Assembly: GCA_934246625.1 (NCBI GenBank) | Contig: CAKQHZ010000001.1 | Span: 390,001 to 422,000, forward strand | From: an uncultured Alphaproteobacteria bacterium | GTDB taxonomy: Bacteria > Pseudomonadota > Alphaproteobacteria > Rs-D84 > CACZYB01 | Reading direction: 5' to 3' | DNA length: 32,000 bases | In this document: positions 8,990-18,013 of the stretch, in pieces | Layout: every line of letters begins with the position of its first letter | How positions within the stretch are numbered: the stretch's first letter is position 1 | Translations under genes and position numbers: made by a program | The notes under the pieces: generated by a model | What the model was told of the DNA's origin: nothing | What the model saw: only the letters and a program-made list of their open reading frames with translations | The model's database searches: none

Positions 8990-9547
8990 ATGAACCATGA
9001 CAAATTAAATTTATCAAAAGATAAAATCTTTAAACTTTCGATTATTATATCAACCTTAATTATCAGTTCTTCGGCTTTCGCAAGTGGATATGGATATTAC
9101 CCAGGTGGTGGAACAAGTTATACTGTTTTTGGACCAAGCACTGAAAAGACATCTTCTTCATCAAGTTCAAAGACATTTGGAACATCATTGAAAGATATGT
9201 TATCAAAATACTGTGTTCCGACGGTTGGCAATTGCGACAAAAAGGCTACCTACAAAGAAAATATAATAGCACCTGGCGTTAAAAAAACTTGGTGCGATTG
9301 TGCCAACATCAACAAATTCTATAACTCTTCGAATCGTTCTTGCGAGAACTGTATCCTCGGCTCTTTCGCAACCTCAGACTATAAAACTTGTGAGCCTATT
9401 CATTGCCCTGACGGCTATGTTGCGACTTTGATTTCCAAAGGGGCGTGTCCAGATGGCTATACTTTGCAACAAATCAATGTGGCTTCGGGTTGTGGCGAGG
9501 GTTATGCGTTGAAGAAGTATAATCCGGCGACGAAGAGTTTTAATTAA
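8990..9547 (+). CDS. secreted cysteine-rich repeat protein (185 aa)
   Basis: RBS AGGGAGA lies 6 nt before ATG 8990. Signal peptide KIFKLSIIISTLIISSSAFA/SG, then a Gly/Ser/Tyr-rich linker, then 10 Cys with CENCILGSF, CPDGY (twice) and CGEGY units. Confidence 0.7.
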   Translation: MNHDKLNLSKDKIFKLSIIISTLIISSSAFASGYGYYPGGGTSYTVFGPSTEKTSSSSSSKTFGTSLKDMLSKYCVPTVGNCDKKATYKENIIAPGVKKTWCDCANINKFYNSSNRSCENCILGSFATSDYKTCEPIHCPDGYVATLISKGACPDGYTLQQINVASGCGEGYALKKYNPATKSFN

Positions 9548-9553
9548 AGATAT

Positions 9554-9589
9554 GGGCGGGAGTTTTTTATCATAGTCTTGCTTCCGCCC
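9554..9589 (+). promoter_or_regulatory. GC-rich intercistronic stem-loop (terminator, attenuator or processing structure)
   Basis: GGGCGGGAG (9554-9562) pairs with CTTCCGCCC (9581-9589), 9 bp including one G:U, around an 18-nt loop. No U-tract follows, so it is not a canonical intrinsic terminator. Confidence 0.4.
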
Positions 9590-9654
9590 TCCCAGATTGG
9601 CACTTTTGAAGAGGGGGAGGTGTCAAGGAAGAAACACCCTCGAAGGAGAAAAAA

Positions 9655-10182
9655 ATGAAAACCATGAAGAAAAAGAAATTAGCGGTGATAGGGATAGCGG
9701 GAATGCTCTCTGCGACAGCACCTGCCTCCGCTCAAACATTTTATCAATGTATGCCGATAACTTGCCCAGCAGGTAAGTATTTAGAAAATGGAAAATGTAA
9801 TAACTGTCCTTCTGGAACATATAATAACAAATCTGGACAAGTTGGAAGTGAAAGTTGTATAAAATGCCCTTCTGGAACAGGCTCATGGAACGGTGCTTCA
9901 AAATGTGAAGCTCCATCTTGTTTAAAAATTTACGGTGTAAATAATTCAAATAATTTTTCTAGCAAATATAAAGAAATATGCTTAAATCAAACTGTAAATT
10001 GCACCTGTGATTTTATTTCAAATTTATTTAATGGTAGTGGCTGTGATAGTCAAGGTCGCTCTTATTTTAGCAGAGGTGCAATAAAATGTAGTAATGGATA
10101 TCACGATTTCTTTACAGGAAAGAGAAAGGCTGTCTGTGAAAATCAAAATAATTGTTTATATTTAAAAATTATAAATGATTAA
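9655..10182 (+). CDS. secreted cysteine-rich repeat protein (175 aa), distant paralog of 8990-9547
   Basis: RBS AAGGAG lies upstream. Signal peptide KKKLAVIGIAGMLSATAPASA/QT. There are 15 Cys, with CPAGKY, CNNCPSGTY and CIKCPSGTGSW units. Confidence 0.75.
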   Translation: MKTMKKKKLAVIGIAGMLSATAPASAQTFYQCMPITCPAGKYLENGKCNNCPSGTYNNKSGQVGSESCIKCPSGTGSWNGASKCEAPSCLKIYGVNNSNNFSSKYKEICLNQTVNCTCDFISNLFNGSGCDSQGRSYFSRGAIKCSNGYHDFFTGKRKAVCENQNNCLYLKIIND

Positions 10183-10216
10183 AAAAATCCCCCTCTATTG
10201 AGGGGGTATTTTATTT
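10183..10216. terminator. bidirectional rho-independent terminator (Cys-rich gene 2 / gyrB)
   Basis: Perfect 7-bp stem CCCCCTC (10189-10195) / GAGGGGG (10200-10206) with loop TATT. An A7 run lies upstream and a T-rich tract downstream. Confidence 0.8.
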
Positions 10217-10220
10217 CGGA

Positions 10221-12824
<2,604 letters not shown>

Positions 12825-15940: not shown

Positions 15941-16022
15941 CTTTACTTCCTTATAATAGAAAATAAATTAACTTTATAAAAATTGCAATATTTTAATGCG
16001 TTTAAATTTTTATATAAAACTA

Positions 16023-16050
16023 TTGCCTTTGCTTTTGAATTATCTATAAT
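16023..16050 (+). promoter_or_regulatory. candidate sigma-70 promoter for thrS
   Basis: TTGCCT (16023-16028), a 16-nt spacer, then TATAAT (16045-16050), about 35 nt upstream of the thrS ATG. Confidence 0.35.
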
Positions 16051-16084
16051 ACTAAAGTAATTACTAATATATAGAGGTTAAAAA

Positions 16085-18013
16085 ATGATTAAAATAACTT
16101 TCCCTGATGGAAATATAAAAGAATTTGATAATGGAGTATCTGGATTTGATATTGCAAACTCTATTTCTCCATCACTTGCAAAATCTGCTTTGTTTATAAA
16201 ATTAAATGATGAATACTATGATTTACATAGAGCCATTGAAAAAGATGGAACCATTAAAATTTTAACAATCAAAGATGATGAGGTTTTACCTCTTCTTCGT
16301 CATACTTGTGCTCATATTATGGCACAGGCTGTAAAACAAATTTATCAAAATGCAAAACTTGCTATTGGTCCATCTATTGAAAACGGATTTTATTACGATA
16401 TAGATATGGACGAAAAGTTGACCGAGGCTGACTTTGCAAAAATTGAAAAAAAGATGGTTGAAATCATTAACCACAATTTAAAAATTGAAAGAAAAGATTT
16501 AACAACTGAAGATGCAAAAAAATTCTTCCTTAAAGAAAACGAATCTTATAAAGTAGAGCTTATTTCCGATTTGGAAAAAGATGGTGTTAAAACTGTAAGT
16601 ATTTATACTCAAGGTGATTTTGCAGATTTATGCCGTGGTCCACATCTTCCATCAACTTCAAAAATGCCAGTTGATGCGTTTAAAATCACATCTGTTGCTG
16701 GTGCATATTGGAGAGGAGATTCAAAAAATAAAATGCTTCAACGACTTTATGCTACTGCTTGGAGAAATAAGGACGAATTAGATGCTTATATAAAGCAACA
16801 AGAAGAAGCAGAAAAACGCGACCACAGAAAAATCGGTGTTGCAATGGATTTATTCCATTTTGAACCTGACTATGCTCCTGGTGCTGTATTTTGGCACCCA
16901 AATGGTTGGAAATTGTTCCAAAGCCTTATTTCTTATATGAGAAAGAAACAAGAAGAAAATGGTTATATTGAAGTTTCAACTCCTACTATTATGAACAGAT
17001 GTTTATGGGAAACTTCAGGCCATTGGGATAAATATAAACACAATATGTATACTGCTCGTGTTCAAGATGAAGATACAGAATTTGCAGTAAAACCAATGAA
17101 CTGTCCTGGTGGAGTTTTGATTTATAAACAAGGAATCAAAAGCTATCGCGACCTTCCTATTCGTATGGCTGAATTTGGTAAAGTAAATAGATATGAAGCA
17201 AGTGGTGCTTTGCATGGTATCCTTCGTGTTCGTGAATTTACTCAAGACGATGCACACATCTTCTGCACAACAGAACAAATGGAAGAAGAATGTGTAAAAG
17301 TTATCAAACTTATTATGGAAATATATAAGGACTTTGGTTTTGACTCTGTAAGAATTAAACTTTCTACACGTCCAGAAAAACGTATCGGTTCAGATGAAGT
17401 TTGGGATATGCTTGAAAAATCTTTGGCAAATGCCCTTGAACATCATGGATATGAATATACTATTTTCCCAGGAGAAGGTGCATTCTATGGTCCAAAGTTA
17501 GAGTTTGTTCTTCGTGATGCTATTGGTCGTGATTGGCAATGTGGAACTTTGCAAGTTGATATGAATTTGCCTGAACGATTTGATATTTCTTATATTGGTC
17601 AAGATGGTGAAAAACATCGCCCTGTGATGTTGCATCGTGCTTTGTTTGGTTCACTTGAAAGATTTACTGGTATTTTGATTGAAAACTTTGCTGGTCATCT
17701 ACCTCTTTGGTTATCACCTGTTCAAGTTGCAGTTGCAACCGTAAATGAAGGTGTAAATGATTATGCAGAAAAGGTAAATAACCTTTTGAAAGAAAATGGA
17801 ATTTCAACAGTTCTTGATACAAGTAATGAAAAGATAAGTTATAAAATCCGTGCTCACTCAACTGCAAAAATGCCTATCATTGCAGTAATCGGTGATAAGG
17901 AAAAGGAATCAGAAACAATTACTATAAGACGTATTGGTAGTGATAAATCTGACACTTTTGGATTAAATGAATTTATTTCTAAAATCAAAAATGAAATAAA
18001 TGCAAAGAAATAA
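16085..18013 (+). CDS. thrS: threonine--tRNA ligase
   Basis: TGS domain (MIKITFPDG...), the editing-domain motif HTCAHIM, and class II core motifs (FRNE-like region, RVREFTQDDAHIF, GAFYGPKLEF). Confidence 0.93.
   Translation: MIKITFPDGNIKEFDNGVSGFDIANSISPSLAKSALFIKLNDEYYDLHRAIEKDGTIKILTIKDDEVLPLLRHTCAHIMAQAVKQIYQNAKLAIGPSIENGFYYDIDMDEKLTEADFAKIEKKMVEIINHNLKIERKDLTTEDAKKFFLKENESYKVELISDLEKDGVKTVSIYTQGDFADLCRGPHLPSTSKMPVDAFKITSVAGAYWRGDSKNKMLQRLYATAWRNKDELDAYIKQQEEAEKRDHRKIGVAMDLFHFEPDYAPGAVFWHPNGWKLFQSLISYMRKKQEENGYIEVSTPTIMNRCLWETSGHWDKYKHNMYTARVQDEDTEFAVKPMNCPGGVLIYKQGIKSYRDLPIRMAEFGKVNRYEASGALHGILRVREFTQDDAHIFCTTEQMEEECVKVIKLIMEIYKDFGFDSVRIKLSTRPEKRIGSDEVWDMLEKSLANALEHHGYEYTIFPGEGAFYGPKLEFVLRDAIGRDWQCGTLQVDMNLPERFDISYIGQDGEKHRPVMLHRALFGSLERFTGILIENFAGHLPLWLSPVQVAVATVNEGVNDYAEKVNNLLKENGISTVLDTSNEKISYKIRAHSTAKMPIIAVIGDKEKESETITIRRIGSDKSDTFGLNEFISKIKNEINAKK

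Follow-up and report, generated by a model that had tools for sequence, protein, structure and literature searches.

A two-gene cassette of constant and variable-headed cysteine-rich proteins at five loci of an uncultured gut alphaproteobacterium, a candidate binding repertoire

What purpose do two adjacent small, cysteine-rich, secreted-looking proteins serve within the housekeeping backbone of an uncultured alphaproteobacterium? The question is raised by genes A and B, located between a GT2 gene and gyrB in a 32,000-nucleotide stretch of contig CAKQHZ010000001.1 (positions 390,001 to 422,000 of assembly GCA_934246625.1; hereafter the window, meaning this whole stretch), which an earlier note, made from the letters alone, had taken for a lone host-mimicking effector pair. 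Based on comparisons between loci, family-wide searches and structure predictions, we propose a different answer. The pair belongs to a self-contained two-gene cassette, restricted to this lineage, that occupies at least five places in the genome, with an invariant junction between the genes and hypervariable heads at the end of B. Taken as a whole, the cassette may represent a recombination-diversified, Sec-exported binding repertoire of a constant A and a variable-headed B. Judged from sequence, the chances of this complete model are about even; what it says on structure and evolution is very probable.

The cassette nature of the pair follows from its copies. Contig look-ups place A exactly 107 nt upstream of B at five distinct housekeeping positions (Table 1). 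In 12 of 12 loci, drawn from these five genomic positions and many samples, a junction block of at least 148 bp shows 100% identity; it takes in the stop codon of A, the 107-nt spacer and the opening 44 nt of B. Some locus pairs are identical over 200-367 bp. Contigs assembled by MEGAHIT at k=141 end or begin exactly on the block, as expected of a repeat within one genome. Averaged over pairs of loci, identity amounts to about 0.9 in the A core, is 1.0 from the spacer into the beginning of B and stands at the background level of about 0.3 past codon 45 of B. The base composition follows the same boundaries, with a third-codon-position GC content (GC3) of 0.40-0.45 in the cassette-shared block (9194-9789), of 0.13-0.21 in the variable parts and of about 0.20 in the neighbouring genes and the genome; the spacer has 48% GC in a genome of 31% GC. 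Such an enrichment would be explained by concerted evolution through GC-biased gene conversion, which is proposed to hold the A core, the spacer and the 5' end of B identical among the at least five cassettes.

Beyond the constant end, B is replaced wholesale. The homologues share the near-invariant N-terminus MKTMKKKKLAVIGIAG..ASAQTFYQCMPxxCxxGxY and carry at least five unrelated C-terminal head classes, one of which is Gly_rich_2 (PF21722); apart from that class, no toxin or other family was matched by any head in Pfam, PHROG, PADLOC or by sequence in the PDB. The class I head of the window is covered by four proteins alone (P0001-P0004, 59-92% identity). At the gyrB locus, the flanks of strain L004 and of the window are 99.15% identical over 10 kb, the 5' part of B is 89.6% identical and positions 9930-10116 are unalignable. 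At the rpsD locus, two strains with flanks 99.26% identical hold wholly different head classes, and the replacement stops at the terminator. By the Nei-Gojobori method, B overall has a synonymous divergence (dS) of 0.50 and a nonsynonymous divergence (dN) of 0.31, with a head omega of about 0.8 (dN 0.61 and dS 0.76 from codon 91 onward), compared to a dS of 0.015-0.05 and a dN of 0.001-0.003 in gyrB, dnaG and thrS, so that dS in B is 10-30 times that of the flanking genes. The high dS and the indels point to the import of old divergent alleles by recombination, and both speak against local hypermutation of the head. They also argue against variation driven by a diversity-generating retroelement (DGR), as does the lack of any repeat of the B head in the window. 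Heads would be swapped between strains by homologous recombination, anchored by the invariant block on the left and by the housekeeping flank on the right.

Every copy of B ends in a locus-specific terminator hairpin 5-25 nt past the stop codon with no open reading frame (ORF) between, and an immunity-like ORF after B was found at none of the loci, the gyrB stop lying 39 bp and rpsD about 70 bp away. No common 3' anchor was found for B cassettes of different loci, the terminators being locus-specific. As regards phase variation, neither a frame-shifting repeat nor credible inverted repeats flanking the promoter region were found, and an invertible promoter was rejected.

Between leader and head, B consists of Cys-rich modules of a type familiar from eukaryotes. 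PF07699 (Ephrin_rec_like, formerly GCC2_GCC3) matches residues 40-75 of B (9772-9879; model positions 1-35 of 48) with 26.2 bits, above the gathering score of 23.1 (E=7.1e-6), and NCD3G, TNFR_c6 and TNFR_ELAPOR1 overlap below threshold. The same module is detected at E<0.01 in 21 of 48 B homologues, and a distant B (L005) reaches 35.9 bits over two stretches. With the family alignment, AlphaFold2 (AF2) models residues 33-80 at a predicted local distance difference test score (pLDDT) of 74-91. A Foldseek search of B against the PDB returns exclusively eukaryotic Cys-rich modules, i.e. those of thyroglobulin, ELAPOR1, CaSR, the EphA2 cysteine-rich domain (CRD), 4-1BB and mastigoneme, at modest E-values from 4e-3 up; superposition on the EphA2 CRD yields an rmsd of 1.7-2.9 Å over about 50-55 residues with 27-31% identity (probability 1.00, E 4e-3 to 0.2). 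The top viral matches are TNFR-Cys proteins. A 34-nt direct repeat (9786-9819 and 9846-9879, 76% identical, 60 nt apart) coincides with two adjacent 20-residue Cys modules, indicating a module duplication inside B. B is modular, with an invariant leader and mature N-terminus QTFYQCMP, one to four Cys-rich modules, which most likely form a rigid stalk, and then an unrelated strain- and locus-specific head. Across divergent lineages the signal peptide differs and the stretch AQ(T/K)FYQC(M/L/F)P is retained. Within the leader, around window positions 9699-9707 and at the equivalent sites of L008 and L010, an in-frame 9-bp unit GGGATAGC[G/T] is present in one or two copies, which gives IGIAG as opposed to IGIAGVAG or IGIAGIAG in the signal peptide.

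In protein A, the signal peptide is followed by a low-complexity linker that differs by locus and then by a conserved core rich in Cys. The linker is specific to the gyrB-locus copy and is missing from the 138- and 145-aa A copies of other loci, and blastn homology of the window A to the other loci begins at 9207. The window A has no PF07699 match; its best Pfam match is cEGF with 18.7 bits, under the cut-off of 26.6. The ephrin-receptor-like module type that the earlier note had named for both proteins is borne out for B, by Pfam and Foldseek alike, and not for this copy of A, which stays below every Pfam threshold. In 15 of the 65 A-family representatives PF07699 is matched at E<0.01, and by this profile evidence the family appears related to the module. 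All members of the A family, 65 clusters in a profile search at E<1e-3 over 1.84 billion representatives that was exhaustively read, are small proteins; the B family comprises 47-54 clusters, 54 of them among 5.8 billion proteins. Both families are thus tiny, and no orthologues across free-living alphaproteobacteria were recovered, which agrees with the earlier note, for which the presence of such orthologues would have been part of a refutation. Neither the A nor the B profile has a solved relative in the PDB by sequence, NCBIfam and Pfam hold no model for either family beyond the shared PF07699 module, and a literature search found no publication describing them.

Two further observations concern A. 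Its extreme C-terminus keeps the motif [ST]-K-[ST]-[FW]-[NK]-COOH across lineages (window 9520-9544; P0054, P0086, P0088, P0093), which may be a sorting or interaction signal. In P0052 (155 aa, on a 10-kb ENA contig), the A leader and core up to ...SDYK run on into the C-terminal portion of a B head of class IIIb, which is either a true A/B recombination or deletion product or else an assembly artefact. The possibility that A and B are paralogues was rejected (hhalign probability 27%, 11 columns aligned, covering the CxPIxCPxG motif alone), as was a free cysteine for an A-B disulfide, the Cys count of B being odd in 31 proteins and even in 22.

A and B are real genes, since numerous independent metagenome contigs, the longest of 715 kb, encode identical or near-identical proteins. 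The ORF coordinates, lengths and Cys counts (10 and 15) of the earlier note proved exact, and each of the motifs quoted there is present, namely CENCILGSF at residue 118, CEPIHCPDGY at 134, GACPDGY and GCGEGY in A, and CPAGKY at 37, CNNCPSGTY at 48 and CIKCPSGTGSW at 68 in B. Cysteine makes up 5.4% of A and 8.6% of B, compared to 0.95% in the remaining 27 ORFs of the window pooled. By inspection, both leaders display the canonical n/h/c layout of Sec signal peptides with cleavage sites ...SSSAFA|SG and ...APASA|QT, as had been claimed, and both genes have a good Shine-Dalgarno sequence, AAGGGAGA ahead of 8990 for A and AAGGAG (9643-9648) for B.

The spacer that separates the genes opens with a conserved hairpin (Table 1), found solely after A genes in 208 kb of scanned loci. 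Five sequence variants all keep the 10-bp stem, two of whose pairs show compensatory changes and zero of which are broken, and the loop motif TCAT(A/G)GTCTT is conserved; counterparts are located at L005 3308-3351, L006 3812-3855 and 5744-5788, L016 712-747 and L017 914-952. An Rfam search of the spacer gave no match, and its overall fold is not significant (z-score -0.68), the first hairpin alone being conserved. The hairpin may serve in attenuation or processing, or may set the A:B ratio. An integron attC or dif-like site was rejected on inspection as the hairpin shows no core-site match, a mini-ORF MGGSFLS in the hairpin as it is not conserved and lacks an ATG in L016, and a sigma-54 promoter at the spacer TGGCAC, likewise on inspection, for want of a fitting -12 element. 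As the spacer showed no sigma-70-like promoter either, A and B are presumably co-transcribed.

Combining these data, we propose that A and B are exported by Sec, folded as disulfide-rich proteins and act jointly outside the cytoplasm, where A would bind the constant part of B. The pair would then constitute a variable binding or recognition repertoire under diversifying selection, with candidate roles as strain-specific colonisation or adhesion factors, or as targets of host IgA, phage or competitors. Several copies with a homogenised common end and with heads exchanged between strains are what molecules at an adhesive or antagonistic interface would show. The order of A before B and the AQTFYQC motif, both kept in divergent lineages, the pairing of the most divergent A with the most divergent B and the DsbA gene beside locus 2 also speak for the proposal. 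Several points weigh against this proposal. The figure of five loci per genome derives from contig breaks and shared contigs, not from one closed genome, and the head classes are mostly locus-specific, so that a shuffling of heads between the loci of one genome is conjectural. The C-terminal half of B, i.e. the head, is modelled modestly (pLDDT 48-73), and the AF2 model of A, at a pLDDT of 43, was not used. An outer-membrane export route or anchor is not evident from the sequence, so that a periplasmic location is possible, and lectin-like bacteriocins likewise lack immunity genes, which leaves room for a toxin role.

Such a role would make the cassette a polymorphic secreted toxin or bacteriocin, similar to MafA/MafB or lectin-like bacteriocins, with A as constant helper and B as toxin with variable killing domains. 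The constant N-terminus and variable C-terminus at several loci, the conserved upstream partner gene, the replacement of C-termini between strains and the one chimeric product, P0052, are all in agreement with this explanation, which we nevertheless regard as rather unlikely: the terminator and then gyrB or rpsD follow B directly, with no immunity-like ORF, none of the head classes matches a toxin, PADLOC or PHROG entry, orphan C-terminal cassettes were not seen, and the heads are Cys-rich like binding domains. The host-mimicry explanation of the earlier note, in which a pair of eukaryotic origin would bind host ligands as ephrin-receptor/TNFR-like proteins do or act as decoys like the viral TNFR homologues, is quite improbable. 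It draws on the PF07699 score of B above gathering, on the exclusively eukaryotic CRDs among the Foldseek matches, on the TNFR-Cys proteins that lead the viral matches and on an organism inhabiting the human gut. However, the likeness is domain-level, spanning only about 35-50 residues of a simple disulfide module at Foldseek E>=4e-3, and neither the single-sequence nor the profile searches, covering 5.8 billion proteins with limited sensitivity for short repeats, returned a single eukaryotic protein, so that the suggested eukaryotic donor finds no support. All their matches were family members, located on bacterial metagenome contigs and in Alphaproteobacteria MAGs (metagenome-assembled genomes). 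Moreover, the varying and presumably acting part is the head, which is not eukaryote-like, the family is multi-copy and confined to one lineage, the GC3 anomaly is limited to the block shared between copies, and there is no sign of an intracellular lifestyle.

The invariant QTFYQ could instead be a secretion signal of the type IVb pilus (T4bP), as in TcpF/CofJ, with the heads exported or shown at the pilus tip. For TcpF, it is Phe1/Tyr5 of the mature protein on which this signal depends (PMC9565799). In agreement with such a signal, the mature N-terminus of B is invariant with an aromatic pair, F3 and Y4, across lineages with differing signal peptides, and a TcpQ-secretin-PilO-ATPase-platform cluster is located 2.7 kb from locus 2. 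We consider this explanation very unlikely, as only one of the five loci is near pilus genes, with the oppositely oriented rpsD and queH between, as QTFYQC runs straight into the first disulfide module and a long flexible tail is missing, and as its conservation may reflect the signal-peptidase site and the first module. The pair might also be periplasmic disulfide-rich housekeeping or stress proteins, for metal or redox buffering, whose variability reflects relaxed constraint. Although the Sec signal is the sole recognisable export feature, anchor or outer-membrane secretion motifs not being found, and although the omega of about 0.8 in the head is compatible with relaxation, the probability of this explanation is low: divergent alleles and the at least five head classes persist with their ORFs unbroken and their Cys frameworks preserved, a genome retains several cassettes, and leader and stalk are strictly conserved, a combination that typifies interface molecules and not genes in decay. 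Of all these explanations, the binding repertoire is the best supported.

Comparison to known systems places the cassette within a familiar kind, i.e. the multi-locus families with constant N-terminus and variable C-terminus that are upheld by recombination, such as opa/bab, maf and PE/PPE; what is novel is the two-gene form with eukaryote-type modules and an invariant junction in a gut alphaproteobacterium. With Neisseria maf (mafA-mafB-mafI) the cassette shares several loci, a conserved upstream partner and a second gene with signal peptide, constant N-terminus and variable C-terminus, but it lacks an immunity gene, a recognisable toxin domain and orphan cassettes, and A is by inspection not a lipoprotein. 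Neisseria opa, Helicobacter babA/babB/sabA and Anaplasma msp2 likewise exist as complete genes at separate sites that agree at the 5' end, diverge in the variable regions and undergo allelic replacement by recombination; these, however, are single-gene outer-membrane beta-barrels or autotransporter-like adhesins, whereas A-B is a soluble-looking, Cys-rich two-protein unit. The mycobacterial PE/PPE pairs, which probably work as cell-surface heterodimers, also consist of adjacent genes, occur in numerous copies and combine a conserved N-terminal part with a variable C-terminus, but differ in fold (helical as opposed to disulfide-rich), in secretion (type VII as opposed to Sec) and in phylum. The modules of B stand in tandem as in the stalks of eukaryotic PF07699/TNFR-type proteins (EphA2, CaSR, ELAPOR1, 4-1BB); in contrast to those receptors, B is a bacterial, Sec-secreted protein of 175-250 aa without a transmembrane or kinase part, its modules being fused to novel heads. 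TcpF/CofJ, soluble colonisation factors that type IVb pili secrete (PMC9565799), share with B a Sec leader and a conserved, aromatic-containing mature N-terminus, in a genome with a T4bP cluster, yet A-B is located outside the pilus operon and is multi-copy and Cys-rich.

It is conceivable, as a long shot, that the cassette represents a new variable-ligand system. Here a shared export or display machine, e.g. the tip of a type IVb pilus, would be the docking site of A and of the invariant end of B, the latter by a TcpF-like N-terminal signal, and interchangeable stalk-head proteins of eukaryote type would be presented to the gut, with the hairpin after A setting the A:B ratio and GC-biased gene conversion keeping the docking end identical.

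Table 1. Features of the A-B cassette in the window and carriers of its five loci (location given as window positions or, for loci, as carrying sequences)
Feature	Location	Strand	Remarks
Gene A, constant subunit	8990..9547	+	185 aa, 10 Cys; ORF and translation, homologues P0048-P0054
A signal peptide, ...SSSAFA|SG	8990..9082	+	31 aa; n/h/c by inspection; 78% nt identity with long-type A of L003
A Gly/Ser/Tyr-rich linker	9083..9193	+	alignment A3, per-locus A translations; GC3 0.21
A conserved core, L..L.KYCVP...C.C...R.C..C..GSF...CEPI.CP.GY...CP.GY...LK.YN..TK.FN	9194..9544	+	about 90% mean pairwise nt identity between loci; GC3 0.45
Invariant junction block (spacer and first 44 nt of B)	9551..9698	+	ungapped perfect-match extension, alignment A2
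Conserved hairpin GGGCGGGAG-N18-CTTCCGCCC	9554..9589	+	starts 7 nt past A stop; no T-run
Shine-Dalgarno of B, AAGGAG	9643..9648	+	sequence
Gene B, variable subunit	9655..10182	+	175 aa, 15 Cys; ORF, family alignment A1
B signal peptide MKTMKKKKLAVIGIAGMLSATAPASA|Q	9655..9732	+	near-invariant in family; alignments A1, A2
B mature N-terminus QTFYQCMP (invariant) and three ephrin-receptor/TNFR-type Cys-rich modules	9733..9918	+	PF07699, AF2, Foldseek
B hypervariable C-terminal head (class I)	9919..10179	+	gyrB-locus orthologues only; no known family
Bidirectional intrinsic terminator common to B and convergent gyrB	10189..10206	.	terminator scan
Locus 1: GT2-[AB]-gyrB	window, L001, L002, L004
Locus 2: DsbA-[AB]-rpsD	L003, L007
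Locus 3: O-antigen genes/Mtd_N-[AB]-TraT	L008-L010, L012, L013
Locus 4: RNase E/G-[AB]-DUF5131	L011
Locus 5: BamA-Skp-LpxD-FabZ-[AB]-TsaB	L014, L015

In the window, the cassette is flanked upstream by genes for RlpA, UppP, CarD, GreA, an RpoH-type sigma factor, XerD, a J-domain protein and GT2, and downstream by gyrB, nth, dnaG, thrS, pal, frr, uppS, addB, a Tim44-like gene, secB, plsC, ctpA and secF. Annotation of these neighbours confirms A and B as the sole non-housekeeping genes between the GT2 gene and gyrB. No type IVb pilus genes are present in the window, where the 543-aa ORF is CtpA and the 297-aa ORF is SecF. GyrB itself (10221-12788, minus strand; 855 aa) has an acidic N-terminal extension of about 45-60 residues before the ATPase domain, which is kept in strain L004.

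Several of the other cassette loci have neighbours of their own interest. At locus 2, a DsbA gene lies immediately upstream of the cassette, and the pilus cluster nearby (L003 14186-20639, L007 3446-10754) is type IVb or R64 thin-pilus-like, encoding TcpQ, a secretin, PilO, a 292-aa protein, an ATPase and a platform protein. At locus 3, a 376-aa Mtd_N protein (major tropism determinant; phrog_9648 tail protein) is encoded together with an overlapping 86-aa ORF (L008 7431-8814, L012 3457-4840). No reverse transcriptase was seen within 10 kb of this gene, which is separate from B and may be what is left of a DGR or a tail fibre. A segment of about 7 kb with the locus-3 cassette, a TraT-like gene and accBC is bounded by inverted repeats 170-220 bp long, approximately (L008 8929-9141 and about 15988-16365; L012 12104-12436), and prophage-like genes (T7-type capsid, Phage_capsid_2, nozzle) are located about 6 kb downstream of this locus (L008 16167-20597, L009 6274-10704). 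As to a phage or plasmid origin of the cassette, tblastn searches with A and B against a phage collection and with B against a plasmid collection gave no match, the conserved 31-mer is absent from IMG/VR, and no PHROG or PADLOC family matches the cassette.

The cassette extends to relatives of the window organism. In a related MAG (L005 and L006, contigs CAZHAL010000047.1 and CAZHAL010000011.1) the A-B pair occurs three times, two of these copies standing in tandem, and there is a separate conserved block of 232 bp, 94% identical. The label of this MAG, 'uncultured Bacteroidales', is probably wrong, since its priA is 84.6% identical in nucleotides to that of the alphaproteobacterial-type L011 and it carries the same cassette; other relatives are labelled 'Alphaproteobacteria bacterium' at NCBI. 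The most divergent A (L006 5348-5737) pairs with the most divergent B, and more distant members (L016) keep the order of A before B. Just upstream of the tandem cassettes, L006 1580-2995 encodes another Cys-rich protein that looks secreted (471 aa); it contains a CLSCPAGW module as well as a segment resembling a coiled coil, and has no Pfam match.

Concerning the organism, the Tim44-like/SecB pair, CarD, DciA and the RpoH-type sigma factor presumably fit Alphaproteobacteria, as do the NCBI labels. One carrier contig stems from a Hadza human stool metagenome. The cassette loci encode peptidoglycan, lipopolysaccharide (LPS), O-antigen, type IVb pilus, GGDEF and prophage genes, and given this gene content nothing indicates the intracellular life that the earlier note had assumed; an association with a gut protist may exist.

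In conclusion, the gut members of this uncultured alphaproteobacterial clade have received almost no study, and the cassette described here marks molecules by which the organism would meet its host, phages or competitors. The heads may serve as strain-typing markers and are candidate colonisation factors or IgA targets. On the practical side, short-read assemblies systematically break off at the cassette loci because of the identical 148 bp. The system further offers a clean natural case of concerted evolution beside diversifying replacement, with a putative signature of GC-biased conversion in a genome of 31% GC. Finally, ephrin-receptor-like modules appear to serve in bacterial secretomes, where host mimicry is not needed to explain them.

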